This document shows positions 39,018 to 63,722 of a DNA stretch of 64,000 nucleotides, in pieces (within the stretch, counting starts at the first letter, position 1; the number at the start of each line of letters is the position of its first letter). Origin of the DNA: Selaginella moellendorffii (taxonomy: Eukaryota; Plantae; Lycopodiophyta); contig NW_003314300.1 of assembly GCF_000143415.4 (NCBI RefSeq), positions 1,533,014-1,597,013 on the forward strand, in the 5' to 3' direction. The position numbers were made by a program, and so were the translations under genes. A model generated the notes under the pieces. That model saw only the letters and a program-made list of their open reading frames with translations. It was not told the DNA's origin and did no database searches.

Positions 39018-39028
39018 TGGTATCAGAG
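39018..39028 (+). other. Primer-binding site for tRNA-iMet (TGGTATCAGAG)
   Basis: Canonical PBS 2 nt after the LTR end. Confidence 0.85.
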
Positions 39029-39790: not shown

Positions 39791-39904
39791 CTGGATCCTA
39801 GACCTCACTATCTCTACTATACTTTTAGAACCCCCTACAGTCTGCCCCCCCCCTACAGGAGACACAAGCTTTGGGCTTTCACCCCTCGATTTGTATTAGT
39901 ACTT

Positions 39905-40102
39905 AGACTCGATCTTGGACTTGATCTCGGACTCGACCTCAGACCTGATCTTGGACTCGATCTCAGACCTGACTTCGGACTCAGTCTCGAACCCGATCTC
40001 GAATCTCGGACTCTGTCTTGAACTCAATCTTGAACTCGGTCTTGAACTTGGTCTCGGAGTTGGCCTCGAACTCAATCCCGAACTCTATCTCAAACTCGGT
40101 CC
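39905..40102. repeat. Degenerate 12-bp tandem repeat (actcgatcttgg-like)
   Basis: About 16 diverged units with 6/12-bp periodicity. Confidence 0.7.
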
Positions 40103-40149
40103 TATCCGATGAACTCCTTATCATTTTGGTCATGCTTTCGGGGATCCTT

Positions 40150-41140
40150 TAGCCTATGACACCTCAGAGAGTTGGTTCCTTGTATTCCACACTACCAAGT
40201 CCACTATTTCTTTCCACTTGGATATTTTTATTGAAACACCACTCACAAATTTTCTGGCTACTTGACCACCTTCCCCAAACTGAAAGTGTATGGGCAACAT
40301 TTGCTCAGCATTTAATCCTAACAACTTAACTATGTCTTTGGATATCACGTTGTGTGTAGCTCTTGTGTCAATTATCACTCAGATTTGGTGTCCACAGACA
40401 AAGCCTACCAAATATATCAATGAATCAGTATTTGCATTGATTGTGAGAAAAGCTTGAGGAAAGCAATGTAAGTAACTCACCTCCTCTTCCTCATAGTCTG
40501 CATTGACTAACTCGTCAACCCCTTCAGTTTCACCACCACTGTCTTCCCTCATAACATTAATATGAGACCTTGTCTTATGCTTGTTGGGACATTCTGAGGA
40601 TTTATGTCCTGACTCTTCACAATGGAAGCAATGACCTACACTACCTGTTTTGCTAGGAGTAGGTTTTGCAAGTTGCTATTGCTTGTACCCACTAGGAGGA
40701 GGAACAAAGGGCCTAGGATCAGAAGAAGCTGCTAGTGGTCTCCAACCACCACCACCTTTGTTAACCGTTCCTTGTGAGCCTCTAGGGCGGAACCTTCCTT
40801 CCACCCTCTATTTCTGATCACCTTGTTTATTCCTAAAATTCTTATTCTTATTCAAAGTACCAACATACGACTGTTGATATTGTTCCATGAGTGAATGACT
40901 AAAGGCAACTTGCTATGTTGCCTCCTTACACTCTAAGTACGTCTTCGGCTTAAACTTCAAAATCTCATTACAAGAAAGTGAACTTAAACCCTCCAGGAAA
41001 TAACTTTGAGCATCTTCATCACTCATATTTGCAATCATAATGCACTTTTGAGCAAACACATTAATATAATGCATAAGGTCCCCTCGCTACTCTAACTGCC
41101 CCAACTCCGCACAAAGTCTCAAACCAAGATCATCCGGCAT
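40150..41140 (-). pseudogene. Ty3/gypsy gag-protease remnant
   Basis: GDLMHYINVFAQKC..MSDEDAQSYFLEGLS (capsid); zinc knuckle CFHCEESGHKSSEC at 40589-40630; protease IIDTRATHNVIS (DTGA decayed). Confidence 0.85.
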
Positions 41141-44100
41141 GCTTCCAAACTAACTTGAGGTTGCAACTGGGGTCGAGGGGCCTTGGGTGGGAATGAACCT
41201 AAACTTAGGTTGTGCCGGAGGGGCCACCCTAGGAAGTGCTCAAGAGTAGCTTCCACTCATAAAAGGGAAACCAACTATAGTGCTCCCAGCTCATGTGGTG
41301 TGGTGTCCCAATTAAGTACCTTGCGACTCATTGATTCTCGCCCTTCCTAGGGGCTTGGGCCTTCCCTTCGGGATGGAAGTGGGGGGTAGAGGTACCCATA
41401 CTGGGCCGTTAGGCTATGGTGTCTCCCTTTAGCGTCTCAAAGCAAGTGTTGCACCCAAGGCTTGGGATTTAAAGGGTCTTATGATCAAGTTGTAAGTGAC
41501 TCATTTTTTCATTTTACTTTAGTCACTTAACCACACATTCGACCACTTGGAGGAGTCTCACTCACAACCTCCATATATCCTATTTTGGACTTGAGCTTGC
41601 TAGCCCCAAAAATGGCCTCCCTGCCACTCAACCTTTGCACTTGGTCCAAGTGCTTCACATGTCCGATCCCATGACCAACACCCCAAGGCACCACCAACAT
41701 ACTAGCCCGTTACGCTAGGCCATGCTCAATCACCTTGGTGGTCCAACACCACCTGCATTGCAATCTCGTCTTTCCAAGACTGGGCCATCTATCCATGAGT
41801 GGTCATCCTAGATCCACTCCTTAGCATCCTTAGGATGCCTGTAGACATGGGGAATAACCTTCCCCAATATCTCCTTTCTGGTCCTCACCAAGTCCCTTTT
41901 TGTCCTTGGCCATGTTTGCCAACATTGCCACTGGATCAAGGCCCATAGGCCCGACCACTAAGTCCCACGGTCCTCTAGGACTTCCTCACCACACGACTGT
42001 ATCCTTGGTCACTACATCAGAGGACTACTCCTCTTCCTTTCCATAGTCTGGGCCTTTGGGACAACATTTCGGAACATTGTGGCCTTACGTAAGCCTTGTG
42101 GGTACTCTCCCCGCCTTCCGCCTTTGGGTGCTCTAGCCATGGGCTTAGAGCGAGGTTCTATTAAGCCACGCCTGGTATCCAAGTAGGTAGTGCCACCCAC
42201 ACTTGGATTGGGAGCATCGGCCAATTGATCTCCTGGGGGACCGAAGGCTCACCATGCCTTGTTTATCCTCTAAGGAGCATAGTTTCTTGAACATAGAGAC
42301 TCACTCAACCATCTAGGGTGGTTTGCTCCCTTTTATTGGTTAAGTTCTCGCTAAACCTGTTAAAGACACCCTCTCTAACTCAATTCCACTACTCATTCTC
42401 GAGTTGTCTCAGATTCTATCGACATAACCTTTGCACTTTGGAACTTTTAATTTTGACTTCTCAGAGTTAATTTCCTAGGTGTCTCCGACACCTTATGTTG
42501 CACATGGTGCAACTCCACTTCCCCATCTTAGGAAGTTCTTTACTTGATGGCACCATCATCCTCTCTTCGATATCATGCCACCTTTGGCACTAAATTCCAG
42601 TTATTATAATTTGTACTAGGGCTGCCCACAGCCCTATTATTTGGCTACTTTACCGCTCCCCCCTTTGGAGCATCCACTTTTGCCAAATCGGAGCGGTTGG
42701 GAATCCATCCTTGGGGAAACATTGCCTTTCCCACAATTCGTTAGCACCCAACACATTAGTGTTCTCACCTGGATTCTTTTCTATGATTCCCATGGTTCTT
42801 TTTTTAGCCACTAGTCTTTTGCTCCTATCCTTGATTGTTGCACCCAGCAACATATGATCCCTACCTCCATTTTCGAGGTTTCCTTTCGGTTCCCTAGCAA
42901 CAGTTTGCTTTGCCAAATCCAGAGGGTGTTCACCCCTAGTACGTCTCTTTAACATTTTCTATTGTGGGTTCTATCCACAGCCCAACTTTTGAGACCTTCC
43001 CTTGGATCTCTTATAGAGGCTACTTTCCTCGGACTTACTATGCCATTGCAGTGATATAACTCATTTCCCTTAGGTGTTTTTCCCACTTGGTCACCTTGAT
43101 CAAGCCACACCATTCTCAATAGTTTAAATCAACACTTTTGAACTAAGAACTTTATCCTTTAAACTCACAAGGACTTTGTCCTTGTTTTAGTTATAAGACC
43201 ACCTAGTGATCTAACTTCGGCACCTTAACAGGTTTGCCAATAGGTACTAGGTCTTCCAGACCTTTAAGTTGTTGACCATGACCTCGGGGGCATCCCCCAT
43301 ACTTGGCGGTGTGCCCAAGCCAGCCCTTCTAGCCAAGGATCCATAGCAATTGAGACTGGGTGTCCCCATCTCATTCACCACGTCCTTGGTGCCCTTTGCA
43401 CCACAGTATTCAAGTTAGATATGCCGAGCTTTCACTCTAAGCAATCTAACCGTGCATCACGACTCCAGGGCATCCTCCGCTTGGCAGTGTGCCCAAGCCA
43501 ATCTCCTCATTGAGAGTTGATGACCACTGAAATATGAGTGTCTTTATATTCCAAACCATCACCACGCCCTAGTGATTTGGGACTTGAACCCAAGCATTAG
43601 AAGGTCGGGACTCGAACCCAACCTCCGTATATGCATCTATGGAAGGCATCATCCAAGATGCCTAGTGTGACTCCCCACTCCGGTGCACCAACTTATAGTC
43701 AAAGCGCGCTATAGATCATAGCTTAGAAACCTAGTTCCTCCGCACTACCAAGTCCTCTCACTTAACAAATCTATGATCATGCATGGACTCTTCCATGCTC
43801 GGCCCCATGGGCCACCCCTTTTAAAGTTAGCACCTTCAATTAGGGGATTTGTCCCCCTGACTTGCTAATCTCACTTAGTAAGTCATCCGGCCATCGTAAC
43901 ATGGTTCATGCATAAGCGTGAAAGTCCTTAACCATCGTCTTTCATTCAAAGCCCTCTCTTTGAACACTCGGGAACCACTTCCCCAACCTTGATAGCCTCG
44001 CCTTATGGCCAGCTTCAAAACCACACTTCTGCTATGCCACTCTGATTTCGCGCGCTCTAGAAACCATTTACGCTTGGCTTTCTAGGTACTAAGCTACCTA

Positions 44101-44934
44101 GAATTGTCTTTGGGAACTTTGAAGGAACTCTGTCCCTTAGCTTGCTAAAGCCTCCCTTTTCGCAAGCTTTTTAGTTGCCATATAGTCTAATATGGATAAT
44201 TCCATATTTTAGACTCTCCATAACATCACGATTGCTAGCAATAACACCCTCGAGCCCCCACTTGATTCTCCACTCCCAACTAGCATAACCACCCTTGGTT
44301 ATGCCCTTCGATTCCTATGGTTTGGTTTTATCCCCTTACTACTTGCTTTTGGCTTCACACCTTTCCTTCGGTCATTCTCCTCTAGACTAGGAGGATAGCT
44401 TTGCACTTTCTATTATGTCTTAGCAAGTATTCTTAGGGATGAACCGACCTGATAGCCTAGGGAGTGGTTCCTCAATCTAGGTATGCTCACCTTATAATCC
44501 CACACACCGGGATTAACGTTGTTGCTTATGGGCCCTTACATGCCCATCACTAGCCTTGCCAAAATTCCATTTTTGGTTTTGTCCAATTCGGGTAGACAGT
44601 CTTCTCCCGCCTCTGCAACCTTGGACTTTTGGATAGCACCTTCTATCCATCATTCGCTAGGGACTTAGTCCCTTGGACCTTATCTATTGCCCTCGCGACA
44701 TCAAACACCACCTCCTGGTATTCTAGAGTGTTTGGATGTCCCAAATGATGGCTTCTTTGATAATGAACATTATTTTTTACAACATTGATTTACTATATCG
44801 CAACATAAGCAATTTATCCCCCATAAGGGTATATCTAACTTCCTTATGCCATTAAAAAGTCTTGGGTAGCTACTTTCTACTAGTTTAACTAATTATCTTG
44901 CACCTTTTCTTTAGTTGCCTTGAGCGTGGACCAT
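41140..44934 (-). mobile_element. Degenerate retroelement-like segment bounded by family-B repeat pieces
   Basis: Both ends match parts of the 31030-31552 repeat. The interior has no intact ORF and I recognised no motifs. Confidence 0.35.
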
Positions 44935-45564
44935 ACTTGAGCTCACGAGCTGAAGAGTTGAGCTCACAAGTTGAGCTCAATTTTCAATTGTAATTTAGTA
45001 CAAACATTATAAACTTTAAAATTTTAAAGTTATGGCGAACTTAATAATTTCATAACTCTCTATATATTATATAGATAAAAATGTTCTAAAGGACACTTCT
45101 TGTTCTAATAATTTAAATATTTACTACATTCAATAATAGAGACGTTTGTTAGAATATAAAATAAAATGTTTGCAAAAAGAGTATTCTTGTCACTTCTTTA
45201 AATTTGTACTCTGTGCTTTCTAGCTAGTAAATGTCAGGTTCATCAGAATTTTTAAATTATTAAATTTGAATTAAGATTCTATATAAGGCCATATAACCAT
45301 TTGAAAGGAAAAAAAAAAACTGTGATGGTACATATGCTCTCACAATACATTGTAACATCATACACCTGAAAGACTATCACGAAATATTTTTTGAGAAGGT
45401 AAAGACAAAAATGGAGACTCACAAATACTATGGGTAGTATTGCGAAAAGAACCTTATAAGTATATGAAATGAAAAGTGAAATAATAAAATATTTTTATTA
45501 ATTATATAAGGTATAATTAGTTTATATTATTGATAGAGAATAAACATCGATAGTGCTGGAAAAT

Positions 45565-48500
45565 CTAATTAGCTCCAAAAGTTTTCTGCAACTCAGCAAT
45601 AGTAAAGCTTGCTTGGTGTATATGAATATCCACTTTAGGATCCTGGTGCAAGATGTTGATGAAGATGTAGTACATATGCTTGCAAGGAGCATATGCCTTC
45701 CCATGTTCCTCACGCTTCATAAAGTCTGGACATGTGCAAGAAGGAAAGTCTTGAATGGCAATTGTGTACTCTCCACCTTCTGTTTTGACTGTGTACTCCT
45801 TTGCGAGCACAGTGATGTACTTCGTGGAGAGAATCTCACACTCAAGTGTTTGAGCCAAGTTTATTTTACCTTGCTTCTGCTTGGAGACAGTACCAATAAA
45901 TTTAACTGCCTTACCTTGTCTTGCTGACCTCCTGTGCATCTCTGTAGGAATAGTCCTGGTTCTGTCACTCATATCTCCAACTCTCCTCTCAAGATTGAAA
46001 CCAGATTTCTCAAGGTTTTCAATCTCATCCGAGGTGAGCGCAACCCCATTAGCAACCGGCCATTCTTTAGGTACTGCATCAGGTTTAGTCACTATAGTGT
46101 CTTCAAGCCGCTTTGTATGGTTGACATCAGAGTTGCAGCAATATAACCAACACTATCTTGAAAATCCTGCTTGCTTTCGTTCCCCATGGAAACATGGGGT
46201 TGGAACAGAAGCAGACTTATCACCACGGATCCAAGCCCAACACTTGCCCCTTGGAAGCATCCCCACACACCTTACATTTGATTTTGTTGGCACTCGACGG
46301 ATTGCCCATTGCTTCGGCTCCACACTACGATAAGCAATTTCAACCTGCTGTGATGCACTTTCTTCATCAGCCACTTGAGGTGGTTCGGTTCTGGGGCGAT
46401 GTCTTGGAGCAGAATGATACTCAACATCAGGCCTGTGAGAGCTTTTTGCTCCAAGATCCATGCTAACATCTTCACCAGTAAAAGAAAATCGACGCTTTGA
46501 GCGGACGGTCTTCATATCACCAATAGAAGCCCGAGGAGTGTACTCCATAAATGTGCCGCGGACCACTTCCTCCACTATAGTTGCCATTGTTCGTGCTGGT
46601 GGAGTCACTTTCTTCTTCATCCGATCGTGTAACATCTCAACCGAAGGTCTTGTTCCCATGTATTTTCCTTCCTCAAATGCCAAGGCTTTTGAAGACTGCT
46701 CTACAGCGCGTATCAAATCTGATAGACATGCTTCATATAGACTCATCTTCCCTTTCCCTGCCTCAGAGGAACGCCAGCTCCAATGTTTACTCTCTGAGAG
46801 ATTCACAGTTGGGGTGTATGCAAGATCCTCAAGTGGTTGATCCTTATAAAAAGATGATATTAAAAAGCAATAAAAAGAGAGGAAAAAAAGAAAAACCAAC
46901 TTGAAAAGAGTGATGTCCCCATTGGAACATTCTAACTTCCCACCACCCCAACCACGACTCAAGTTGTGGTAGACAACTTACGTCAGTATGGCCATCTTCA
47001 CGCCACCACATTCGAATCTCGTTTACTTTTGCTTCATGCTCTTCTTCAGAAGGTGCAGCTTGCCATTGTTTGCACAACTCCTTAAATGCTAATTGGAAAT
47101 CTGGCTTGATAAGGTGGCAGTGTTGGTTTAGGCTTTGAGCCCAATGGAACTCACATGTCTTCTCACAACCTTCTAGGGGTAGACCATTCCCAAAGACTGC
47201 CCGGACACCATTCCAATTAGCCCCAGCCCCATCTGCCATGAAACCGCAAAAATTGGCAGGCTTACCAGTCCGCTTCAATACAATGTCGGAGAGGGACTTC
47301 CAAAATATTTCTTGAGCCATCTGGTCTTGTACTTTAAACTCTGCCGTTGCAATTGTCAAGTTACAACGTAGCCTGTGAAAAGTGCAATGTTTAAAACCAT
47401 TTTAAGATAATGAGAAAAAAAACTACCTTGGATCATACACATGAGCTCCCATGGTTGTCCAACCTGCCACTCGCTCCATATGGTCAAAATGTACCCATGC
47501 ATTAGCAAGGTCACTTGACCCAGACATATCCATTCGGGAAACAAGATCCACACCAGAGGCAGGGCCCATGGTAGACATTTTGAAAACGAAGGGGCGCTCT
47601 TGCTCACTAACGACTTGATCTGGAAATAAACTCCCATGGATAAACTCATAGGGACAAGTCTGTTTTAGTTCAAGGATTGAGTCGATTTTTGATTGGAGTT
47701 TCCCCTCTCGAGATTCACACATCCAAGACTTTATCCTAAATAAAACAAAATGTAAGAGAGATATTATTGAAAAGTATGTAATAATATTTTCATACCTTCT
47801 AAGGCTAGTTGCAGGTTGCACATGTCGTAGTAACTCCCGCAAGCTAGCCTCATCCAGTTGAGTATTCTTGTAGTCCGGATCAAGTAAAGTATTTGCGATA
47901 AAATCCTTGAGCACTATCTTCTAAACATGCTTCGGAGTTGCAGATGAGTTTCTCACAGTCTCTATCTGCACTGCATCTTTGAAATGGTTGACTGAACTCC
48001 TTTGTATCCCTTCTTGCATTGGATGTGTGTGCGTGCCAATATGTACTGCAGCTCTACCAACCTCTCCATCCCGTGGAAGAAAATAGTACATCTTGGCCCC
48101 GCAGATGGCACGACACAATGGAGCATTCTTGCAAAACCGACACTTGAATCCAACACCAATGGTGTCACAGAGGGGAGGATTGGTTGCAGATCCTTCAAAA
48201 AATATGGAGTTTTTACCACGCTCTTGATTGCATGCTTTATTCACACAATCCAAATACCCACCACAATGAACCATGGACACTGTGCCTTCGAAATGCTGGA
48301 AATGTGTGGTCTTGATCTTGCACCAGTTGTGGATATCCTGCTTCGTCTCCATCCCCTTTCGTTTTGAGCTGACAAGAGGTGGTAGTTCAAAGAAGATATT
48401 GCCATTGTATGTAGATGGGAGCTCGCTAACAAGCCTATGCAGAAAGGAACGCACGTCGATAGAGAGGCGGGAAAACTGGAAAGCATTGCAAACAGCTTGG

Positions 48501-48889
48501 AATATCAGTGAAGTTGGAGTTTGGAAATTCTTGGCTCGCACTGGACTAACATCTCCACTAGAACTAGAAGAGGAAGAAATGATGACGACCGACTCTTGCT
48601 TCACATTCACTTTAGCAGGATCACAGCCTCGCACTTTGATTGGAGATCCAAAAACTCGAATCTCTTTCGACTTGGAATGTTGCAAATCCCAATGTTGTCC
48701 ACCTTCACCTACACCCGAAAGAAGAAACTCCGATCGTTCAACTACACCAATGTTGTTGCGAATCACAGCTTCCAATGAAATAGAACCGAGAGAAAGATTG
48801 AAACGTCGGCAAAGAAAACTTTCTGAAATAAGACTCTGGGAGATAGAAAGCGGTGGGTGATCTTGGTAATGCATAAGGAAGCCCTCCAT
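45565..48889 (-). pseudogene. MULE-type DDE transposase with N-terminal GCM/WRKY-like Zn domain and C-terminal SWIM finger (~1050 codons; exons 48889-47796, 47735-47427, 47372-46901, 46842-45565; 2 internal stops)
   Basis: CGGYLDCVNKAC..CRFC..CGAK...HIGTHTHP; WVHFDH; GFMADGA; CxxH signature TCEFHW; TVNLSESKH; SWIM SCTCPDF...PCKH. In-frame TAG at 47921 and 46153. Confidence 0.8.
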
Positions 48890-49749
48890 TTTGTTACCTT
48901 TAGGTTTTGGAACTCTGAACTTTTATAACGAAATGTCACCTCACATGTGCTATGCCATTATGTGAAAAGATAGGGCGATTTTATTCTAGGATCTAACATC
49001 GAATAATGTTGTTATAATAAATTCTGTATGAAGTATATAGGACTATGTTGTACAATATTAAAAGTCTATATACATTGAATTCAAAAACATACTCAAATTT
49101 ATTATATGCACTAACTTTTGGTAGAACGGAAAGAAATATCACGTCAAGCATGTGCCATAATATTAAAGATAGGAATGATTTTATTCTAGGATCTACCATC
49201 AACCAATTGTTGCCAAATAAATTAAATATTGTACATATTTTCAGTACTTCATTAAAGCTAGAAATCATCATATTCTTCTAAACTCATTTAAATATATTCC
49301 ATCTTTGTACTACCATCTATCACCTATAGTAAATTATCTATATACATTACTTTGGAAATAACACCTTACGATTTAATAATCTTATATTTTCTAACAATTT
49401 CGTACTGTGATCAATTCAACACATGCGTCTGTGACATTATTTCACATTATGACATAGTCATATTAGAGCACACCTCCATTATTAAATTACAATTCAAAAG
49501 GACTTTGTCACGTGATCAAATCTAGGGCGGAATAGAAATTGTACAGTGCTAGATTTATTATTTATTGTACAGTGAAGATTTACTGCATCCATGATGAACG
49601 GCTGTGATGAAAGTTAGGTTAGGGTTAGGGCAGCTACTGGCGTTAGGGTTTTACAGAAAGTATCGCGGGAGATTGAGAGTGACTGCGGGAACAGAATGCT
49701 GCCAAGAGTAAGTTTTTCCTCCTTCTCCACTCCCTCTCCTCCACTCCCT

Positions 49750-50400
49750 CTCCTCCCCGCCCAGCGCCACCACACCCAGCGCCCCCGTGCCCACGCCATG
49801 CTCTGCGCCGCCACGCTGCGCACACCATGCCATGCTCAGCACCGCCACTGCCCAGGGCTGCCGAGCGCCGCCCACTGCCATGCCACGCCCAGCGCAGTGC
49901 TGCCTGCCCAGCACTGCCACTGCCATGCCGCCGCTGCCGTGCCGCCACTGCCCAGCACCGCCGCTGCCGTGCCGCTGCTGCCCAGCACTGCCGCTGCCCA
50001 GCACTGCCGCTGCCATGCTGCCGCTGCCCAGCACCGCCACTGCCATGCCGCTACTGCCGTGCCGCCGCTGCCCAGCACCGCCACTACCATACCGCCGCTG
50101 CCGTGCCGATGCCACGCCACGCCAGCGCCGCGCTGCCTAGGGCCACTGCTGCCCAGCACCGCCGCTGCCAAGTGCCCAGGCCGGGCATTTGGCTGGGCAC
50201 TCCGCCTGGGCCGGCCAAGTCCACGCAGGCTGGCCAAGGCGCTTGGCTGGCAAAGGCGCCAAGTGCTTGCGCCAAATGCCCACGCTGGGCATTTGGTGTG
50301 AGCCAGCTAAGTCCAAGCGCCAAGGCTGGCTCGCAGGCAGTTGGTCTTGGCGCGGGCCGGCCAAGGTGCTTGGGGGAGGCGTGCACCGAGCCCACGCCCT
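49750..50400. repeat. GC-rich tandem repeat plus nested hairpin array in intron 1 of the ParB-MTase gene
   Basis: Units such as gccgc(c/t)(a/g)ctgcccagcac; hairpins at 50168-50192, 50272-50296 (11-bp stem) and 50300-50331. Confidence 0.85.
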
Positions 50401-50609
50401 GTTCCCCTCTTCTTATGCATTTATAATTTATAATGAGTTTTTTTTATTTTCAGAAACGGAAGCAACTACAAAAGGAGAGGGATGTTGGATCAAAGAGAAG
50501 ACATAAGGAAGATGAGATCCAGGATGACAATCAAGTTGACCTTCAGATAGAGATTTCCACAGCAACAACTCTACCGTCTTCCCAACCACATAGCTCCAGT
50601 CCACATGCA

Positions 50610-50870
50610 CCCCCACCACCGCCATCGATGCCACCACCACCACCACCATTACCACCACCGCCACCTTTACCTTCATCACCACCATTACCACCACTGTCAT
50701 CACCACCATTACCACCACCACCGTCATCACCACCATTACCACCACCACCGCCACCATCATCACCACCATTACCACCACCACCGTCATCACCACCATTACC
50801 ACCACCACCGCCACCATCATCACCACCACCAGCGCAACCATTGTCATCACCACCATTGCTGCCACAACCA
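50610..50870 (+). repeat. Coding tandem repeat SSPPLPPPP
   Basis: tcatcaccaccattaccaccacc units. Confidence 0.9.
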
Positions 50871-53800
50871 CAAATGCCACTACTCTTAACATATTCACAA
50901 AATATGGCAGAAACGGAGCAGTGCCCAAGTGCGCCTGATGGCGGTGTTGGGCCCGAGTCGGGGGCTAGATCTGATAATGGTGCTACTGGAGGTGTAGCTG
51001 AAGCTGAAAGAGAAGTGGAGCTACCTGAACACATTGTCGACAAGCGCTTCCAAGAGACAGCTTTGAGAACTAAAGAGAAGGCCATTCACACGACTCTGGA
51101 GTCTCTCAAGTGGGAAGGCCCGGGGCACATGATCCGAGAAATCCCACTATGTCGATTCACTCAGACAAGCATCGTTCGGTCTGCTTCACCGCACTTCGTC
51201 AACATGGACATCTATAGTCTGTACAAATAGAATGGCCTTGGGACAAACATAGGTATGTTCCTTGTTTCGGTTTTCAAGCCAGGAACGACAAATACCCTCT
51301 CGGTGTCATCGGAAATCGAGAGGGATTGGGATGACATTTGGAAAATGAAGTCCCGCGAATTTGACAACAAGCTTATGAGCCATCCTGAGACTCAACAATT
51401 TGTGGGGAAAATGTTCTACATTATCGATGGGAATCATCGCTGGTGCGCGTGGATGAAGTGCATCTGAGAATGCTTCCGAGACGATCCTGTCTATCACATC
51501 AATGTTCCGGTTGGACATGTACACGCGAGAGGATCTCTAGATTTGGCAAGGCTTGTGATAGCTTGCCACAAAATTAATGCGTAAGTACCTCTCCTTCTTC
51601 AATCACTTTTAACAATTTATGTTTTGCAGACTGGGACAGTTTGCAGTGCAGAAACAAAGCCTAGTACATGATATCGAGCAGATCCGGTTTCTTGCCAATC
51701 TCGACGAGGATGCAGTCCGCAGCCACTATGGTGATGATTTAGCATCACTTATTCGACATCAACGAGGTCGTCAGGATGCCAATAGATGGTACAAGAATCC
51801 AGTGGCTTTTATGACAGCTGTGTGGAGTAAGGTATGTTCTTTTAAGTATACTTCTTATCATAGAATGTTTGTGTTGTCTTCAGCCATTGGTGAAGGTTAA
51901 GCAAGATGCATATGCACAGTCGCATCGAGCTGAAAATGATCAAGAACTCTCAGAGCATTTAGCTGCAATTGACAAGAAAATCAACAGCACAAAGAAGACA
52001 AAGGTAAAGAAATTACTTAGTGTGGCTAACCCTTGACGCCCAAAGGAGTGGTTCGATATTATAACAGAGATTGCTTGTCATGAAAGTAAGTATTGTTTAT
52101 ATTTACATGAAGGTTCTCACAAAAGTTATTTTTTAGTGGGCAAGACTCCAGATGAGATTATTTACAATATCTCAAAGTCAAAGCTTACATATGAGGAACA
52201 GATACACATTCTGAACGACCTCAATAGCAGACTCAGGGAAGGAGAAAAAGGTTTGGATAGTATGATGGAGACTGTGATGAGGAGGACCATCTACATTTCA
52301 CAAACTGTATATGAAGGGGAGATGTTTCTATCGCCTTTCATAGGGGATGATCCTGAGCAACTTCCATTTAAGGACTTCGTCACCATTGAGCTTACAAAAC
52401 TTAGAGAGGACTGGCTGCCAAAGAAGGCCACAAGCACGACTCCATTTGATAAACAACTTGGCCAACCTTACTTCATGCGTCGAGCGGCTTTCAGGTAACA
52501 TACAATTTCTCAACTATACTCAATTGTTTATATTCTATTATAGGTATCTCCAATATAGAAGCATTCCTCTCGAAACACCGGTATGCACACGCCTCCTGAG
52601 GCATGGTGTGAGAGATGGAGGCATGTACCCAACAACAATGAAGTTTCTAGCAGCAATAAAGCGCGCTTGTCCTTGGGAATTGGAGATGCCAGATTATGAA
52701 CCAACCCACCATGAGGCTGCAAGAGGCAACAATGATGACGAAGATGATGGCCATGAGAATGTCGACACTGTTGGTGCCAATGGCGAGCAGAGTGAAGATG
52801 GCGGTGAGAACGAGATTCTTCGAGACGAAGTCGAGCAAGAGAACCAGAACATCCAAGAAGTTCTACCTCGACGAAAGCGAGCAAATCCACATCTGGAGGA
52901 ATTAGTCAACAGTGATGATGATCGTCCAAGACGTCCCCGTAACCGAGGAACTTCTCGAGGTATATTTCTTTTTATTTTCTCCTTTTCTTAGTTCCTCAAA
53001 ATGGTTGCAGCAAAAACTGTCGGGAGTAACTTCATTCCAGCTCGTCTTGATGCTCGAGAAGAGGACTTGGAGGAACTTACATCTACCACACGCCACATGA
53101 CGGTATGTAAATTTTTCTTAAATTCACATCTTATCTTTGTCTTCTCCCCCTAGATTCACCCTGTATCTCCAGTGGCATTCCGTGGTGAAGTTGGGATCTT
53201 TATTGGCTCCTATAGTTCATTGATGGCATCTTTTGAGGAGGATGCTGAGAATATGGCTATCTGGCAAAAGTGGGAGCGCTTTTGTCAGAAGATCCATAGG
53301 CGACCGCTCAAGAGCACAAACTTCATGCTCTTTGACATGCTAGATGGTCTTCCAGACGCTAATGGTGATGTCCCAAGCTGGAACAACCTGACTAAAGACC
53401 ACTTGAAGGATGCATTCCTTTTGGCAGCAATTCTCCTTCACACAACCGGTCAAGTTGCCTTCATTCTCCCGAATGACCCCCATTAGATGTCCTGCCTTAT
53501 GAGGTATGCAAGTCGAGTCAACTCCAAGAGGTTCTCTTCCGGATGCATCATGAATAGTGTTGGGGTCGAGACCAAAGGTGTCCTAGGCATGCCAGAGAAG
53601 GTAAGAAATCATTTTCTGTTTTGGTTGTCTCTAAAGTTTTATTATTCAGGTTATGATGTGGACCTACCATGTGTTTTGCAGAAAAGAAAATGACAGTTTT
53701 CGTGATAGCGAGCGTGCTACAAGGGTTTTGCCAGGGTATGACAACTTTACTGACATCATACCAAATCTCATAGACGACGACATCCGCAACACATTGTCTG

Positions 53801-54175
53801 GGTATCGGTTTCGATCTCCATCGGCGATGCATGTCCTACTTGAGCTTTATTGCCCAACTAGAGGTGTTGTCATCGATTGCACAGCAGGTAGTGGTTCGAT
53901 GGTCGAAGCAGCACGTGACTCTGGTAGATCGGTGTTTGCGATTGAAGAACATGAGTTCTTCAAACGCCATCTTCGAGGTTTTTGTCCTTCTCTATCAGTT
54001 GCTTCTAGGAGGTAATTTATGATGTTTTAAAAACTTATAAATAATATATATTTAGTTTTCTAGAAGTCTTCCTAGGTATGCTGGCACATCATATGCTATT
54101 TGTAAATTGAGGAGTGGTATGAAAAATCTATTTATTAATGATACATTAAAAGACAATTGAATGCAATGAGAAAGA

Positions 54176-54306
54176 TGTGTCACATGTCAATGTGATAATG
54201 ATTGTGACACTGACAGTGTCAGTATAGCAGATAGCGACAGTGATAGTGTCAGTGACAGAGACAGTGTCAGTGTCAGAGATGACAAAGTTACAGTGTCAGT
54301 CTGTCA
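54176..54306. repeat. Cluster of TGACA/TGTCA motifs (direct and inverted)
   Basis: More than 10 copies of acagtgtcag, tgacact and variants. Confidence 0.7.
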
Positions 54307-54437
54307 AAATTCATAATTACTAATATTATCAGTTTATTATCTATAGGTAATACAATTTTGTTAATAAAAAAAAGGCAAGAGGGGGGGGGGGGGGATGAAT
54401 AATATCATAGTGTAAGAATTATTAGTGGCTGGAATTT

Positions 54438-55047
54438 TCAGTAGGATGGCCTAAAAATACCATATTCAGCACTTGTGGGTGTAGGATTTACTAACGGAAT
54501 ATTGTTTCTCACCATGAAATGATAATGATTGTGTGTTTTTAACTCTTTCTTGATTTTCTTATACATCCATTTATGCACACCTTCCACACCAGTTCTTGGG
54601 CAGTTGTGACAGTGTTCTAGAAAAGTTTCTAGACCCATACAGCCTTCCGTTTTATCTAAATAAAAGTAGTAGATAGGACACTGGAGATAATATGTGTTCA
54701 TTCTTTCAAAAGTTTCAACCATATCGGGAGCAAGATCTTGAAGAAACATCTGGCATCGCTCTTGAAGCACATGAGGCAATCCATCTTTTGTAGCAACATC
54801 TAGAACATTATCTGGAAGAGGGATCTCTTGTTCAGTCACACTTGGGGCTACAAAAGAAANNNNNNNNNNNNNNNNNNNNNNNNNNNNNNNNNNNNNNNNN
54901 NNNNNNNNNNNNNNNNNNNNNNNNNNNNNNNNNNNNNNNNNNNNNNNNNNNNNNNNNNNTTGGTAGAAGTTGGAGATGGAGGTGGAGACTCAAGGATGAG
55001 ATGCATGGGGGCCAAGTGCGAGTAGCAATAGCATTTTCCCTAGCCAT
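54438..55047 (-). CDS. Cys/His-rich small protein, paralog 1 (spans assembly gap, possibly frameshifted)
   Basis: LQERCQ.FLQDLAPDM..TYYLQCPI..FYL.KT.GCMGL..F.EHC..CPR.G.EGVH.WMYKKIKKELKTH is shared with 55306-55857. Confidence 0.55.
54860..54959. other. Assembly gap (100 N)
   Basis: Run of N. Confidence 1.
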
Positions 55048-55305
55048 TCCTACACTCTAAACAAACTAAAATTTCAATGTTGAAAACATCCCTTGTTGGT
55101 ATTTATACTAAGAAAAGATCTAGGGGTTCTTGAAAGTTTAAATTGTCAGTCTCAAAAATGGGACTTCAGAATTATAACAGTGTCAGAACCACTTGTATAT
55201 ATAATAATATCTTTATACATGCTAGAATAATATCATTCTCGAAAATATAAGATTCTCCACTTTACTCATAAAGAATTAACCTTTTGAAAAAACTATGCAT
55301 GACTT

Positions 55306-55857
55306 TCACATTACATTAAAGGGTGGCCTAAATATCCCATATTCAGCACTTACTGATGTAGTGTTCACCAATGGAATATTGTTCTCCACCATAAAATCAT
55401 AATAGCTGTGTGTTTTTAATTCTTTCTTGATTTTCTTATACATCCACGCGTGCACACCTTCCAAACCCACTCTTGGGCATTTGCGACAATGCTCAATAAA
55501 ATTTACCAAACCCATGCAACCATCTGTCTTGTTTAAATAAAAGTTGCATATAGGACACTGAAGATAATATGTATCTACATTAAGCTCCCCTGCCATATCT
55601 GGAGCAAGATCTTGAAGAAAATATTGACATCGCTCTTGAAGCATTGGAGGCAATCCAACTTTTTTAACAACATCATAAGGAAGGAGTTTTTGTTCAGTTG
55701 CACTCGAGGTCGCAAATGGAAGAGCCTCACAACAGCCCTCAAAATGAAGAGGATTGTTGCGTAGAGGTGAAGGTGGATTATTGGTTGAGATTGAAGATGG
55801 AGGTGGAGACTCATATGAGAGGCCTTCGGGACCAAAAGTAAACTTCTTCCTAACCAT
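55306..55857 (-). CDS. Cys/His-rich small protein, paralog 2 (183 aa, putative Zn finger CPIC...HCxxC...H)
   Basis: Intact ORF; strong protein-level conservation with paralog 1 despite nucleotide divergence. Confidence 0.65.
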   Translation of the reverse strand: MVRKKFTFGPEGLSYESPPPSSISTNNPPSPLRNNPLHFEGCCEALPFATSSATEQKLLPYDVVKKVGLPPMLQERCQYFLQDLAPDMAGELNVDTYYLQCPICNFYLNKTDGCMGLVNFIEHCRKCPRVGLEGVHAWMYKKIKKELKTHSYYDFMVENNIPLVNTTSVSAEYGIFRPPFNVM

Positions 55858-56298
55858 TGCAACACACAAGAAGAATTAAACTTCCTAGCAATAAGAATTC
55901 TCTCATTAATATACTATATTTCAATCTCGGGAATGATGTTTTATTATGACATGACACTATAGTGAATGATAATTGTCAGTCTTAGTAATTACAACCTACT
56001 ATGAGAAACAAGTGGCTATAGGGTTTCAGAAGCTAAAAACTAGCATATAATTAATATGTAGCCTTATTTTATATAGTTGGCCTGCCATATATAATAATAG
56101 CGAATATACACAAGCACGCGAGTATGCCTTTTTGCAAGATTACCTTTCAATCCCAAAATCATATATAGATTTAATTCTTTGATTTGTCTACATCATATAT
56201 CTTTGCAAAGACAAAACATATCAAAAGGAATAAGATATATATAAAAAACTTACATTTTCTTATAATATTTTAGTGGATTACAAAAGCCATTGAAAGGT

Positions 56299-56544
56299 TT
56301 ATAAAGTGGATTTATTAGTGCTTTCCGCTGTGCTGTCCATTTCTTCTTTTCTCTTGCTCTGGATTGTTGTTTCGGAAGTAACAAGAGCATTTTTATCAAT
56401 AGTGACAGTGGTCTCCACATTCCCGGATGGGTAATAAGGACCAGGCGTGTAATATGGAGATTGTGGTAGTGAAACAAAATTCACATTCTCACATTTCTGT
56501 ATGCTAGAACTACTTACAGATTTTTTGTCTTCCTTGCTTCCCAT
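56299..56544 (-). CDS. Possible small 81-aa ORF near the element's right end
   Basis: ATG-initiated, preceded by a telo-box at 56551; no recognisable domain. Confidence 0.3.
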   Translation of the reverse strand: MGSKEDKKSVSSSSIQKCENVNFVSLPQSPYYTPGPYYPSGNVETTVTIDKNALVTSETTIQSKRKEEMDSTAESTNKSTL

Positions 56545-58474
56545 CTCTGTAAACCCTAAAGAATGAACGAGTGAATCAGTGTTTCGAATTATTTATATAT
56601 TTCTGGTCAATTGTTGAAATGTTAAAATGTTGAAATGGACAATAGAAATTTTCCAGTTCATTCGAACTTCAATATTCCCATTTTATTTGGGACTAATAAA
56701 GCCCAAAAATTTCTATGGGTTCAGACGAACTTCTAATTCTAGAAATTGTATAAACTGCATTAGAAAGATTCAAAAAATAAAAATCTCTCTGAACCATTGA
56801 TACTTAAACTCGTAAATTTCAAGTTCACCAAAGAATAACATTTTTCTGACTTAATATTTCCTTATAAAACTTATAGTTGACTATGTTGACTAGCATTGAC
56901 TTGAGCTAAATTGAGCTCAACTCATGAGCTCAACTCAACTTTGGACCATCCCCTCTAAAGACAAGTAGTAGCTTTGTTGTGAGGGAGTGATAAAGAGGTA
57001 AATGTTTTATTTTATGTATCTTCCCAGGCATAGCAAAAGAAAGAAGCTTAGGAGAAATAGATTTATGCCTAAGCTTAGGCATCCAAATAAAAAAGATCCG
57101 ACTTAAGCAATGTTCATCATAGACAAACATGAAGTAATTAGAAATGGTTATAAAATTATGTAATATATAAGTAGCACTTAGACATGTTAGAAAACAACCC
57201 TCACTCATTGTTGTATGCATTTGCATTGAATTAACCATATTTACTCCCATTTATGACTATTTGTGCAAAGTAGAGTTGAAAAAGTGATATATACTTATCC
57301 TTATTCTTCTCATTCTTCTTCTCTTCTTTATGTGCTTGTTTTTATTTGTTTGTTACCATTTTTCATACAAGGGAAAGAATGCAAGTATAGGTAGAAAAAG
57401 CCTTACTCATATACATTTAGAACCCCCCATGCAATTGTTGAAAAGCATAATCATAATCATTAACATGTCCAAATGCATGCTTGAAGACGTCAAAGAGAAA
57501 GCTCCAATCTACTCTAGTTGTTACACTCAAACCATTATACCACTACAATGTCGTCCCTTGGAGACATATAGAAACTCATACAAATGTTGACTATCATCCC
57601 AAGAATAATAGGTACTAATCACTATAAAGTGATCAAATCAATGGTACATATTATCCCAAGTTTCCCATGGAAGAACTTTGGTCAAATGCAAAGATTGGCA
57701 ATAAGAGTAGAAGGAGTTATACCATATGCTGTGAATGCCACTATCAACTGAGTTTGATTGTTTAATTGCAACTGTATAACATCAAGCAACTACACCAACT
57801 ATTGCTCTAGAATCAAAGGAGGAGGAAGTTGCTGTTTTGCCATGAAGGTGAATAAAAAGGACAAAAGTAGAAGAGAAGAAATTGAAAAAGTTACAAGGAA
57901 AGAAATATATAAACAGTGCAAAAGCTAGACCTAAACCACAAAATCCCAAATATAAGCACCCCTTTGCAACAATCAAAGTTGCCCTTCATTTCCACCAATA
58001 TGAGTGTATAAAATATGAAAATGGAATACAAAAATGTGCATCTTAATTATCCCAAAAACCCTAGCTTATATATATGAGCAAGTAATCCAAATTGAAACCA
58101 ATTTCATAGCTATCAAAATCCCATTATACTAATATTAATATATGGTAATAGTTTGTTTGCTCATAAAGGTTGGGGCTTTGACTTCTCTTTCTATATCACT
58201 TGCAAATAGGGGTATCATCTTTTATAAGCTAAGTGCATCTAAAGTAACAAGGGTGGCTAACTTCATTAATTATTTTTTTGTCGGTGATGATTAGAAGGTG
58301 TCTGAATTGTAGTGTGGTTGCATTAGACAATGAAGTTGCCTCATAACCCATTTAAGTTAGTGCATTTCTTATAAAGTGTGAAGGGTTCTAAAGTTGTTTC
58401 TGAAAGTTTTTTGAAGTAGTAGTCTAAACTAGAGTATAAATCAATGAGGACGTCAATCTTCCCTAAGGGGGGAG

Positions 58475-59123
58475 TGTCATAAGCATGATTATGGGTATCG
58501 AAGCTACTTGTCAATAAGTCCTTTCAAATATTCATTCCATACTACCATAACAATAGAAAATCAGTATTGCTAATTCCCTTTTTACCTTTTCAGTCCTTCT
58601 TGTTTAAGTGCTTGTAAACTTGATTTAGCATCTGTACTTGGTTAGACGAGCATAAGGAAGGAATTCCTAAGTTTCTATTTAGCCAAGTATATTTAGCTTA
58701 ATTTATTAGTTCTTTTTTGCTTTGTCCAGCGCTAGGAATATCCCCTTTACTTTATCCTGGCGTGCATATCTATCCTTGTTCTATGTCTGGCTTGGGTTTC
58801 ACTTCTAGTTTCTTGTTTGCTTCTTATTTAAGCCTAAGTTCTATGTTATGCTAGTTGGTTTTGTACTTATATCCTTGCATTAGGCCACTAATATGTTGAA
58901 ATAGCATTAAACTCTATTTAGCTCCATTTTACGTGCTAATTTTGGTATTGCTATGTTAGTTGCTCTAGGACTATTTCCATATTGTTCCATATTCTAGTTC
59001 CTTCACTCATACTTGGGAGTTTGGCTCTGGCCCTGGACATGTGGATAAAGATTTACATTCCACTCCATAGTTGACCTTTAGTAAATTACTATAGGATAAA
59101 TAGTGAAAACTACATATGTTACA
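58475..59123 (+). mobile_element. LTR (family A), TG...CA, with PPT upstream (58465-58474) and Met-PBS downstream (59126)
   Basis: aagggggggag|TGTCAT ... TTACA tt TGGTATCAGA. Confidence 0.8.
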
Positions 59124-62100
59124 TTTGGTATCAGAATATACATTTTAGTGAGTATTATCTAATGAGATTGGGCAACTAATCTTGTTGCATACATAGAGAT
59201 GAAAATGTTTGGGTGTTATGATTTCACATTCATTCCTCAAGTATTGATTTTGGTTACCTTTTTGTACTAGATTATATGAGCTTTCACTTGGGCTCATAGG
59301 ATGGATGTTAGATGTTCCATTTACATGAATTTGCACTTGAGCTTGTGAGAGACATTAACAACTTAAGTTTACATTTTGAGTTGGCAAGATTAATGTTAGC
59401 CTATCAATAGTTACTATAAATTATTCCATGTTACCATGCATAAAAGTAAACCTCTTGGTTTGCTATGAATGGTAAATAAGGTAATCCGTAGCTGTTTAGC
59501 ATAGCACTAGTGGATCCTTCATATGCATGATTATGAGTGGATTAATTGAGACTATATTGATTAGTCTTTTAGTTTAAGTAGTCATTCCTATGCTCTTTTA
59601 TAAACTTTTCTTGGATTTGATTAAAGGTAGTGCAAATGCAAGTTGAGGTTTAGTCAAAGTAAAGTCTTAAAAAAAAGTCATTAGGGATGAAGGATTAAAT
59701 ATGTAAATCATCTTCTTTTTTTTGGAGATATGATTTGCAACAAGGTGTGATTTCATTGTTTGTATTCACATCACGCAATTAAAAGTATTTATTTCAATAC
59801 ATGTTAATTATGATAGTCTTGCAAGTGGTGAGTCGTGAGATGGATAGAAGTGAAGAAATAAAACTTTTTGTCTAGGTTTGCTATTGAAAAATTTAGGTTA
59901 CAATGCTCAATTTATTTCTAAGGGAATTTGCTATTACTCATTGAGTAACTTGGTGTCAGATTAGTTTATAGTTTTGTTAAAAAAAGAGTGGCATGAGCTT
60001 GTCTATATTGTCAATGAGATTAATGATGTTAGGTGTTGTAAATTTTTATTAGTAGAGTGTGGCATTTATGTTGCATTTTATCAAATAGTGTTGGCACTTG
60101 ATACTCATATAAACCTTTGTAGTAATGACATAGTGTTGCTTGTAATGTTGCTCAATAGATGATCAAATTATTATGATTATTATATAATATTCATATGATT
60201 GTGAATAATGTGTTTACAAAGTTGTTTGATCAAACAATGATCAATTCCAAAGTGGTTGATGGTGAAGCTAGTCTATTTACACATAATAACATTGTAGTAA
60301 CGTTGATTGAGTTTTTGATAGTGATCCATTATGTTAAGCTTATCTTGGTACCTTGTTTCTTTAAGAGTTGCCCATTGAGTTTTGAAAAGGATGTAACATT
60401 TATTTGTTATAGTTTGTTGATGGATTCGTTAGCACTTAAAGTAGGTTATTGAATGGAGAAAATATGTAGTTGAGGCATTGACATTGCTAATATTCATATT
60501 AGTAGAATTAAAATTGTTATATTAAATGATGAGAAGTTTTCTTTAAAACTTGATTTTTTATATCATTTTTTTTGTTAATGTTTTGGCTTCACATTGGATC
60601 TTAAAGGTAATTAAAGAAGAGTGTTAATACCATATGGATATCCAGATATGTGATCTTCATGATCAAGTTTTGGGTATTTATTAACACTTGTGGATTTTGT
60701 TTTCAAATGTTAGTATGATATTTGATGCTTAAACATTTTGTTGGATTATGAAAATTTGTATTAAGGTGAACCTATGTGAAGTTGTAAGTAAAAGAAAGTT
60801 GGTTGAGTCTTAAAAATTTTTATATCCATTTTCATAAATTATTGCAAACTAGTGAAGGGGTTGGAGTTGACTTCAATTAGCTTATGCTTTAGTAGATAGT
60901 TTGTATGATGTGGCCCAAAAAAGATATTGACTTTTAGAGGTAAGGCAATTGAGTTAGATAAAGTATAGAGTTGGCCATTACGCTTTTCTCAAAAGGTGAC
61001 CCTTGTACTTTTTTCTATAACATCATATTTGGTGGTAAGTTGCACTTTACATTTTATTAAACTCTATAGAAGTAATGAGCTTTCATTAATTTTAACTTAG
61101 TCTTAATATATGCCTTAGCTGAGGATAGTGATGTTGAACTTAGTTGGTTGTGGTTAAAATATTAGTACCTTATACCCTTGTCTATTAGGGGGTTGTGTAT
61201 CATATAAATCCTTCTCATAGTTTTCACTTTAGTTTCAATTGAATACTAATTATATATAACTAGCCTCTTTGATTATGCTCAAAGGTATTAGCTATATGTG
61301 TTAGTGAGTTTATTGCGATTAAATTGAACTTAAGTAGTCATTTTATCCCTACTTGTTCAATGATATTTTCTATCATGCTTTAGAGTGTTACCTTTCTGTT
61401 TAACAAGTATATAACTTGATGACATAACTTTGATGTTTAGGTTTTATGAAGACAAGTTGAAAATTGATTATTGGTTTCTTTTTGACTAGTGATTACTTAT
61501 AAACTTTGTTGAGGACTATTAACACTTGCTTCATTCAATGATGATTTTGTAGTGATGTGTTTACTTTACCAGATGCTGTTGTGAAGGATTGTATCTTTAA
61601 AATTGCATAGTTTTTTATATTAGCATGTTGATTCCACCTTTCTTGATATTATTTAGTTACATTTAGTCTATGGTGTTGGATTGATTTGAATATTGGATAT
61701 GATGATTCACTCCTTGATGATATGGCAAGTTAAATTAATTATGTTATAAATGAGATAGTTTAGTAAAGGTTGAGCTTGGTTTTTCCTTGAAGATTGATTT
61801 AATTATGGAATATACTAGATTTACAAAATGAAGAGTTAATGATCAATTGATGTTATTTGATCCTTGTTGAATTCGAATTGAAGTTTTATCAATTATTGAT
61901 AATTTTTCTTATGTTTGTTATAAAATGAGTTACGTTTATATAAAGAAGATGGATTTATACAAGATCATTTGGTGATTACTTATTGAGTATAACTTTATCA
62001 TGCTTGGGTTTTAGATTGATGCAAACATGTTTTTCAATAGCTTTTATATTGATATGTTGAGAAGGATATTATAGATTATAACATGATTTTTATTTTGGCA

Positions 62101-63486
62101 TTCATTGAAGTTGGTTTATATAAGACTTGTGATCCTAGTTATACAAGACTTTCTTATACACTTCTTTGAACTTTTAGTCCTTTAAGTTGAGAATTATATT
62201 TATTGTTCTATTTGTTTACAATTGTCAAGGAAGGCATTTTGGCTCATTAGTTTTAATATTCAAGTTAGTTCTCACATTTAACAATCATTGGTGTGATTGA
62301 CTATCATCTAAAATAGTTGATTGTCCTTATTAGATGTCTTGCTTGATTATTATTGATGTTGAATGATTTGCCGTTCTTCAAGATGATGGATTGATATTTA
62401 ATGATGACTATGGATCTTTATTGAAGGAATCATCAATAATATTTCATGATAGTTAGTTCTTATTTAAAGGATTTTGGCTTTTTGTATTATCATATATTCT
62501 TTATGGTTTTTTTTAAATTGTTAATGCTTACTTTAGCAACTTTTATTTCTTAGTATTATTGATTGAGATTTATTCAAATTAACTAGAGCGACAATTGACA
62601 TGAACAAGTGTTTATTGGCCCTTGCAATATTCATTCTATTTTATGGATTATTGATAAGGTTGGTTCTGATAAATTGGGGTGTTATTTCTTTTAGATAATA
62701 TATTTATGAGTATTCTTATTATTTAGTTGATAATACTTTGTGTTCTTTGAGCTATTTTTCATAAATTCTTTGGCATACTAAGTTTTATTTTCTTGATGAT
62801 ATATTTGTTATTGAATATTTTTAGATGATTAATCCTATGACTTTAAACTATAGTGATATTGATGGTTCCTATATTGTATTGATTTATTAGATGATGACTT
62901 AATTAGAATACTTTTGTGTTCTAATATAAACTAATAATTTGGTCTCTAAGATATCATTGTCGATAATTTTGATATTGTCCATCTATTGATCTTTAAGTTT
63001 AGACCAGTATACGCAGATTAGCTTTGGCATTTTATGTGCATAGTGAAATCTATATTTATGGGGTATTTACTATCAATTGGTAATGTGACCTGTCTCTTTC
63101 TCAAAATTCCTCATTTTGTTAAAAAGATATGATTTTATAAACAACTTTAACTATTTGTTTATAGTAGTCCCAATGAGTTTAGTTTATTTACTCAGGATAA
63201 TTAAGGCTTTTAGCTTCTCTTTTTATATTACCTATAGGTAAAGGAATATTGTCTTTTGTAAGTTGTGTGATAGGGTGGTTAAATCCATTAATCATTTCCT
63301 TATCAGTGATGGCCGAAAAATGTTGAGTTGTAGAGTATTTATATTAGACAGAAAGGTTGCCTATAATTCATTCATTTCTCACAAAGTTTAAACACCATAA
63401 TTTTTTTTTAGAATTATTTCCTTAGCAGTGGTCTAAATTAGAGTATGAATCAACAAGGATGTTAATCTTTCCTAAGGAGGGGAGAG
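59124..63486 (+). mobile_element. Highly eroded internal region of an LTR retrotransposon ending in a PPT (63474-63486)
   Basis: Bounded by PBS and PPT plus LTR; 63350-63486 resembles 58330-58474; no intact ORFs. Confidence 0.65.
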
Positions 63487-63722
63487 TGTTGTAAATGTGA
63501 TTGCAAGTATTAAAAGTTACATGTGAGTGAGTCTTTTCAAATATTTTTTCCTTACTACAATAATGGCAAGAGATTAGTATTGTTAATTCCCTTTTCAGTC
63601 TTTCTTATTCAAGTGTTAATAAGCATTTATACTTGGCTAGGCAAATATAAGGAATTCCTAAGTGTTTATTTAGCTAAGTATATTTGGCTTGGTTTATTAG
63701 TACTCTTTTATTCTATCTTGCA
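63487..63722 (+). mobile_element. 3' LTR (family A), partial
   Basis: Begins TGTTGT after the PPT and matches 58475-58735. Confidence 0.7.

Follow-up and report, generated by a model that had tools for sequence, protein, structure and literature searches.

How did a gene that combines a ParB/Srx-type motif with a prokaryote-like DNA methyltransferase domain come to lie in a lycophyte genome, and what might it do there? The gene in question, referred to here as the accessory gene, occupies 49696..54015 on the plus strand of a 64,000-nucleotide stretch of Selaginella moellendorffii DNA (contig NW_003314300.1, positions 1,533,014 to 1,597,013; hereafter the window). An initial annotation had described it as an intron-containing plant gene of phage-like ParB-methyltransferase architecture. 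As set out below, it is a transposon gene and not a host gene, and we are highly confident that it is cargo of a 12-kb element. The reading that we favor overall, at a probability of about 0.4, is that the window holds a defunct copy of this multi-copy element's second gene, the intact form of which would encode an accessory amino-methyltransferase acting on the element's own DNA.

The element spans 44935-56940 (12,006 bp) and encloses the accessory gene together with a decayed transposase gene (Table 1). It is bounded by an inverted repeat of 29 nucleotides at 93% identity (44955-44983 and 56908-56936), which is imperfect at the very ends, and by an exact target-site duplication of 8 bp; an 8-mer was common to two random 33-nucleotide flank windows in 2.1% of 20000 draws. 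The right end is also visible in DNA run X1, where depth drops from 49114 to 10729 across 56947/56948. In this run, 6516 contigs fell on 50900-57600, 4829 of them less than 99% alike, and summed depth was 13,000 to 89,000 across 27 bins ending at 56947, compared with 10,700 to 16,500 for the 3 bins that follow; these counts and depths do not equal copy number, and the flank beyond 56947 is itself repetitive. Carriage by a mobile element, as initially proposed, is therefore borne out by the inverted ends, the target duplication, the transposase, and the divergent sister copies. Rather than a "plant gene," it is better called a transposon gene.

The transposase model contains an N-terminal Cys/His cluster, D447, D515, CxxH at 541-544, E642, and a SWIM finger at 994-1014 (weak Pfam match; E=0.032), and a search of plasmids with this protein gave no match. 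The D/D/CxxH/E arrangement, assigned by eye from motifs of Mutator-like elements (MULEs), is a putative MULE-type DDE core. The two genes lie head-to-head, 806 bp apart, and the spacer between them is likely a shared promoter region. Judging from its sequence, the element is likely a Mutator-like DNA transposon: its terminal inverted repeats, although short, and its 8-bp duplication agree with this class, for which target duplications of 8 to 11 bp and frequent additional genes are described (PMC6446971).

The accessory gene had been described as a stop-carrying, intron-containing gene of 1073 codons. A nine-exon model reproduced exactly this length, with four internal stops and with all motifs in place. 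All eight introns are GT..AG; seven measure 49 to 52 nucleotides, and the remaining one, of 746 nucleotides, follows a predicted first exon of only 12 nucleotides. In 100 mononucleotide shuffles, the pattern DG.HR appeared 3 times and the motif I pattern 0 times, compared with once each in the real window. A GC-rich, tandem-like repeat of 14 to 16 bp lies at 49815-50186 within the long first intron; we regard it as a candidate binding array, presumably akin to those of VANDAL elements.

Sister copies indicate what an undamaged gene would look like. Among the 40 of 563 X1 variants listed, which cover three of the four stops (51465 lies outside them), sense codons account for 95%, 90%, and 99% of depth at 51228, 52034, and 53485, respectively. 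At 53341, which is in a CHG context, C makes up 30147 of 36150 depth units in X1 (83%; 20 contigs) and 324 of 805 in run X4, which is from the same sample (40%; 17 contigs). This C turns the DMLD of the window copy into DMPD, the form also found in the S. moellendorffii homologs P0002 and P0007, and so the initial suggestion that CTA had decayed from CCA proved correct. Among the majority variants, 17 that change the protein were examined: 8 return it to the residue of an S. moellendorffii homolog, and 2 lead away from that residue. Selection could not be measured from the variants at 33 sites, given their small number and the preponderance of C/T decay among them. The observed/expected CpG ratio is 0.68 for the accessory gene and 0.50 for the transposase, compared to 0.98 for host genes. 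Since sense codons at the three stops listed and DMPD predominate in the sister depth of X1, and since the element is depleted in CpG, we regard the window copy as having decayed within a family whose members are typically intact. Host cytosine methylation likely silenced this copy and drove its decay.

To place the gene among known proteins, the last exon was searched with HMMER against 1.84 billion representative sequences, which yielded 6 matches at E<=0.001. Two are S. moellendorffii proteins (E of about 1e-30) and one is a bacterial PF01555 fragment (P0005); P0003, P0004, and P0006 were dropped as spurious, being repeat-rich surface proteins. No homolog of the last exon outside Selaginella was found among these representatives. 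Through P0002 we reached P0007, a stop-free S. moellendorffii model that holds both VVDGNHR and DMPD. The window model matches P0002 at E=4e-99 and P0007 at E=9e-58 and is colinear with both, P0002 beginning at an internal Met of P0007 and spanning exons 3 to 9. Identity to the window model is 45% in the ParB-like part (89/198, P0007), 35% in the middle (95/272, P0002 residues 407-685), and 47% in the methyltransferase part (96/205). P0002 and P0007 both lie on one contig of 4,463,058 bp and are probably two models of one locus. P0001, in turn, is recorded as an identical protein on 5 contigs, as expected of a recently mobile gene. The RefSeq models are partial: P0002 lacks the ParB part, and P0001 comprises the C-terminal part only. 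Word-index protein searches with the last exon (among longer proteins) and with the P0002 methyltransferase region (among shorter proteins) returned nothing, and pattern scans confirmed no related locus in metagenomes, prokaryote genomes, or viral contigs, which contain little plant DNA. Sequence searches of the PDB gave nothing significant, the best relevant entry being the modification methylase 2zie (E=0.35).

The C-terminal domain has the beta-class order initially described, with the motif IV position preceding motif I. The last exon matches phage DNA methyltransferase PHROGs (E=2e-6 and 3.2e-5), and in the ESM Atlas, the methyltransferase part of P0002 scores 0.96 to Myxococcota clusters in which 39 to 60% of members carry PF01555; 10 of the 10 best family matches agree. 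Global hhalign comparison with 7 phage and plasmid methyltransferases (98.4%) placed DMPD on DPPY and DxTAGxGS on DPFAGSGS. Motif I and the acidic residue that follows it (D[AC]TAGxGS ... [IL]E) are present in the window, P0001, and P0002; these residues and the D and P of motif IV are retained at 47% overall identity, such that D, P, and the S-adenosylmethionine (SAM) motif are common to the two Selaginella lineages compared. The domain is predicted to bind SAM and would methylate an exocyclic amine. Because motif IV starts with D, which as a general rule points to adenine rather than cytosine (PMC8885841), adenine N6 is the more likely target than cytosine N4. The initial assignment to N4-cytosine methyltransferases (N4C) is not supported: the first residue is not the S of DN4MT1 and N4CMT, and neither protein was recovered by HMMER.

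A set of 16 phage beta-class methyltransferases (17 of 59 loci were in frame, 16 of them methyltransferase-like) was picked by similarity of motif I, so that their agreement in this motif is circular; position 2 of motif IV is I, L, or V in 9 of the 16, so phage beta-class enzymes tolerate these residues there. A phage beta-class family with the nonaromatic motif DPPA was found at 122 of 122 loci by a pattern that excluded aromatics, with motif I downstream in 53 of 64 closed frames. These loci (L067-L188) are from IMG/VR, and about 200 are estimated to exist in the collection. We propose no special kinship of the Selaginella gene with this family, as the motif IV half matches it no better than shuffled sequences do. 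A single-sequence AlphaFold2 model of the methyltransferase domain (predicted local distance difference test [pLDDT], 36) was too poor for a fold search.

At the other end of the protein, the IIDGNHR motif reported initially is present as a hydrophobic-DGxHR motif and reads VVDGNHR in P0007, which, by holding both motifs in one model, also upholds the view that both parts belong to one gene. Residues 30-280 of P0007 are closest in the ESM Atlas to fungal DUF3723 (0.95) and to two unnamed eukaryotic clusters (sponge and basidiomycete); a ParB_N cluster follows at 0.91, with 119 shared features and the family on 35% of members. These neighbors hint that DUF3723 may hold a ParB/Srx-like domain common to eukaryotic mobile elements. 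An AlphaFold2 model of the ParB-like part (pLDDT of 33.7 with 2 sequences) was too poor for a fold search. About 450 residues separate the ParB-like and methyltransferase domains. P0007 had no match among 50,697 phage records at E<=10, P0002 matched them at its methyltransferase end only (best E of 0.04), and no relative covering both domains was found in the phage records or viral contigs. Given the eukaryotic nearest clusters and the lack of a phage match to P0007, the fusion may have been assembled among eukaryotic mobile elements rather than inherited from a phage. We therefore no longer describe the gene as a phage-like ParB-methyltransferase fusion, a term also at odds with the long gap between the domains.

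If the favored reading is correct, the accessory gene and the transposase, lying head-to-head, would be expressed together, the protein would be brought to element DNA by its ParB-like and middle regions, and the methyl mark would help the element to stay active or transpose. By analogy, this would be the role that VANC and MURB play in other MULEs, VANC as an anti-silencing protein (PMC10398659 and PMC5735166) and MURB as an accessory protein (PMC12973397).

A number of findings weigh against this reading. The intact motif IV, DMPD, has Asp where the aromatic fourth residue is expected; instead of (D/N/S)PP(Y/F/W), sister copies and homologs alike read DMPD. None of the prokaryotic sequences examined has DMPD (position 4 is Y or F in 7/7 and 15/16, with one H), and the DPPA family has A, not D, at this position. 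In N4CMT, the aromatic residue is modeled as stacking on the target base (PMC10406627), and changing SPPY to APPA abolishes activity (PMC8885841). The alignment signal comes mainly from motif I, with the motif IV half alone scoring 20.4 compared to a maximum of 18.3 in 40 shuffles and falling below shuffles against the DPPA profile. PF01555, the expected domain, was recovered at E=1.1e-4 in the last exon, but its 22.6 bits stay under the gathering cutoff of 26.7, as do the 20.2 bits of P0001 and 13.8 bits of P0002. The ParB-like exon has no Pfam match, and its PHROG matches are weak (ParB-like, E=0.044; DGQHR, E=0.022). Neither Pfam nor NCBIfam yielded a MULE family match for the transposase (2 of 3 NCBIfam queries were in frame), and the targeting of the element's own DNA is purely our inference. 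Finally, RNA is close to nil, with 4, 1, and 0 reads in ∼1.4 Gb (about 12%) of each of three runs, the third of which (X24) was compared with 871 bp only. In favor of the reading, three reads of run X22, representing about two fragments, fit sense-strand splicing of intron 53103-53153: observed bin depths of 0.68/1.26/2.4 are near the 0.72/1.29/2.6 predicted for spliced RNA and differ from the 0.54/1.47/3.0 predicted for unspliced RNA, although this is arithmetic on bins and not a listed joint.

Because DMPD has no aromatic fourth residue, a close rival is a pseudo-enzyme in which the methyltransferase fold and SAM site serve as a DNA- or RNA-binding module, aiding transposition or anti-silencing without methyl transfer. 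We rate it slightly below the favored reading. The change to Asp in both lineages and the absence of DMPD from the prokaryotic sequences fit it well, as do descriptions of DIRS1 methyltransferase domains as likely inactive (PMC4738411) and of N6-methyladenine (6mA) as lost from major multicellular lineages (10.64898/2026.05.21.726589). Yet motif I and D-x-P have been kept while large parts of the protein changed, and nonaromatic motif IV variants persist in phage methyltransferases. The altered loop could instead mark a switch of substrate, leaving an enzyme active on element RNA, single-stranded DNA, or protein. Eukaryotic recruits of prokaryotic amino-methyltransferases with unusual strand-4 motifs, including a permuted clade related to myxobacterial proteins, have been proposed to act on RNA (PMC4738411), and the nearest Atlas clusters are myxobacterial; nevertheless, domain scans revealed no RNA-binding domain, the ParB-like partner and DNA transposon context point to DNA, and we judge such a switch quite unlikely.

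Two further explanations concern the gene rather than its chemistry. MULEs often capture host genes (PMC6446971), and a host or horizontally acquired gene could have been amplified in the manner of a Pack-MULE without serving the element; that P0002 and P0007 sit on one contig, probably as one locus, is compatible with this. Such passive cargo is unlikely for a full-length, intron-bearing gene that faces the transposase head-to-head and is intact in the bulk of sister depth, with identical P0001 proteins on 5 contigs and no homolog of its last exon outside Selaginella among the representatives searched. Very improbable, in our estimation, is that the two halves are separate genes or that the ParB motif arose by chance: while the RefSeq models P0002 and P0001 are partial, the ParB profile matches are weak, and no RNA read joins the ParB-like exon to the methyltransferase exons, the frame is continuous across eight canonical introns, P0007 unites both motifs, and P0002, from an internal Met of P0007 onward, is colinear over exons 3 to 9. 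The accessory amino-methyltransferase thus remains our preferred reading. A bolder form of it, which we hold to be doubtful, is that a cut-and-paste family of a vascular plant writes its own 6mA or N4-methylcytosine (4mC) without the aromatic residue of motif IV, guided by a ParB/DUF3723-like region and to anti-silencing effect, in a lineage supposed to lack such a mark. It would then be the third time that eukaryotes independently captured a beta-class amino-methyltransferase, here caught before domestication.

Table 1. Coordinates of the element, its genes, and its motifs within the window
Feature	Coordinates	Strand	Basis
Target-site duplication at left, 8 identical bp (from 44926, 9 bp if one mismatch is allowed)	44927..44934	+	
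Left element end, GAGCTC-type subrepeats, short inverted repeat with 29-nucleotide core 44955-44983	44935..44983	+	Sequence
Decayed transposase gene, 4 exons, 1050 codons, 2 stops	45565..48889	-	Gene model
AT-rich spacer between head-to-head genes	48890..49695	.	Sequence
Exons of accessory gene	49696-49707, 50454-51580, 51630-51831, 51884-52085, 52137-52494, 52544-52959, 53011-53102, 53154-53600, 53650-54015	+	
Internal stops of accessory gene	51228 TAG, 51465 TGA, 52034 TGA, 53484 TAG	+	
Motifs of accessory gene	IIDGNHR 51420, DMLD 53334, DCTAGSGS 53875, AARDSGR 53908, FAIE 53935	+	
Basic K/R-rich start, then proline-rich low-complexity segment	50454..50900	+	Sequence
ParB/Srx-like region (IIDGNHR at 51420), model residues about 200-400	51039..51690	+	P0007 identity, weak profiles
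Conserved middle region and acidic linker, exons 3-7	51691..53102	+	Identity to P0002
Beta-class amino-methyltransferase-like domain (motif IV position DMLD 53334, motif I DCTAGSGS 53875)	53154..54015	+	
Further internal element sequence: ∼880-bp tandem duplication, Cys/His-rich frame per copy, 97-amino-acid frame	54400..56600	-	
Right inverted end of element	56908..56940	-	Sequence; X1 depth drop
Right target-site duplication	56942..56949	+	Exact 8-bp direct repeat just outside ends

The remaining internal sequence of the element has an X1 depth resembling that of the rest, and its frames have no Pfam match. The copies of its ∼880-bp tandem duplication (54400-55900, minus strand) are 80 to 85% alike, each with a Cys/His-rich frame of 180 to 190 amino acids. 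The element may thus have a third gene here, in a region interrupted by 100 N of assembly gap at 54860-54959. At 56276-56499, which covers the 97-amino-acid minus-strand frame, X1 depth reaches 89,297, about twice that of neighboring bins, and this sequence is perhaps common to a shorter nonautonomous derivative.

The element sits among older repeats (31000-44900 and 57000-64000), which include a zinc-knuckle frame (40379-40675, minus strand) and diverged direct repeats 10 to 20 kb apart (31471/41489, 31049/44827, 37459/58016, and 38411/58501/63514); these flanking repeats are likely decayed retrotransposon sequence. Farther away, three tandem paralogous frames (19999-24168, plus strand) resemble membrane-anchored SAM-dependent methyltransferases, a P-loop-containing frame (29422-30818, plus strand) is presumably Crinkler-like, a type of protein expanded in some nonseed plants, and a frame with a long Lys/Met-rich N-terminal repeat (5351-6964, minus strand) is presumably tetraspanin-like.

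Prokaryote-type amino-methyltransferases are known on retrotransposons and, in domesticated form, in a liverwort and in rotifers; we found no report of such an enzyme on a plant DNA transposon. If active, the Selaginella protein would show how such enzymes can reach land plants and be maintained there, and it would allow a direct test of transposon self-marking against silencing by 5-methylcytosine; it also raises the question of whether motif IV can do without its aromatic residue. If inactive, it would still represent a family of accessory proteins, carried by a high-copy element, that has not been described before. The stop-free Selaginella homologs make an activity assay feasible at once. 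In the literature, the family appears undescribed: the main text of 10.64898/2026.05.21.726589 makes no mention of Selaginella, ParB, MULE, or land plants, and the supplement of PMC4738411 contains neither "404703" nor "DMPD." The journal version or supplements of the Marchantia DN4MT work might place Selaginella sequences in a phylogeny.

The closest known counterparts are the uncharacterized S. moellendorffii proteins XP_024519109.1 (LOC9661604), SELMODRAFT_404703, and XP_024519602.1, which are colinear with the window gene, 35 to 47% identical by region, and carry VVDGNHR, DMPD, and DATAGxGS; unlike the window copy, they are stop-free and lack the proline-rich segment, and they are unannotated. 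Prokaryotic and phage beta-class N4C/N6-adenine methyltransferases (PF01555) share the placement of motif IV before motif I and a matching motif I region, whereas the Selaginella gene has DMPD rather than (D/N/S)PP(Y/F/W), spliceosomal introns, and a long N-terminal extension. Marchantia DN4MT1 and bdelloid N4CMT likewise represent prokaryote-type beta-class amino-methyltransferase domains in eukaryotes; neither is among the 6 HMMER matches at E<=0.001, and, as described, they differ in having (T)SPPY and in being active host genes, N4CMT with a chromodomain. For the ParB-like part, the top language-model match is DUF3723 (no Pfam match by HMMER), a conserved cargo of fungal Starship mobile elements (10.1101/2021.12.13.472469); Starships are a different element class, and we treat this match as a lead. 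MULE accessory genes (VANDAL VANC, MuDR MURB, and Mutyl MutB) resemble the window gene in being extra genes of elements with 8- to 11-bp target duplications (PMC6446971), but the known proteins of this kind are not amino-methyltransferases. In Table S6 of PMC12973397, which tallies Pfam families over 1846 clusters of active plant MULEs, "Mtase" has 0 rows, ParB occurs twice, and other methyltransferase families have single counts. Finally, the DIRS and long terminal repeat retrotransposons that carry DAM (10.64898/2026.05.21.726589 and PMC4738411) are likewise transposable elements with a prokaryote-like adenine methyltransferase; there, DAM-type domains travel on retrotransposons, whereas the element described here is a cut-and-paste transposon with a beta-class domain.

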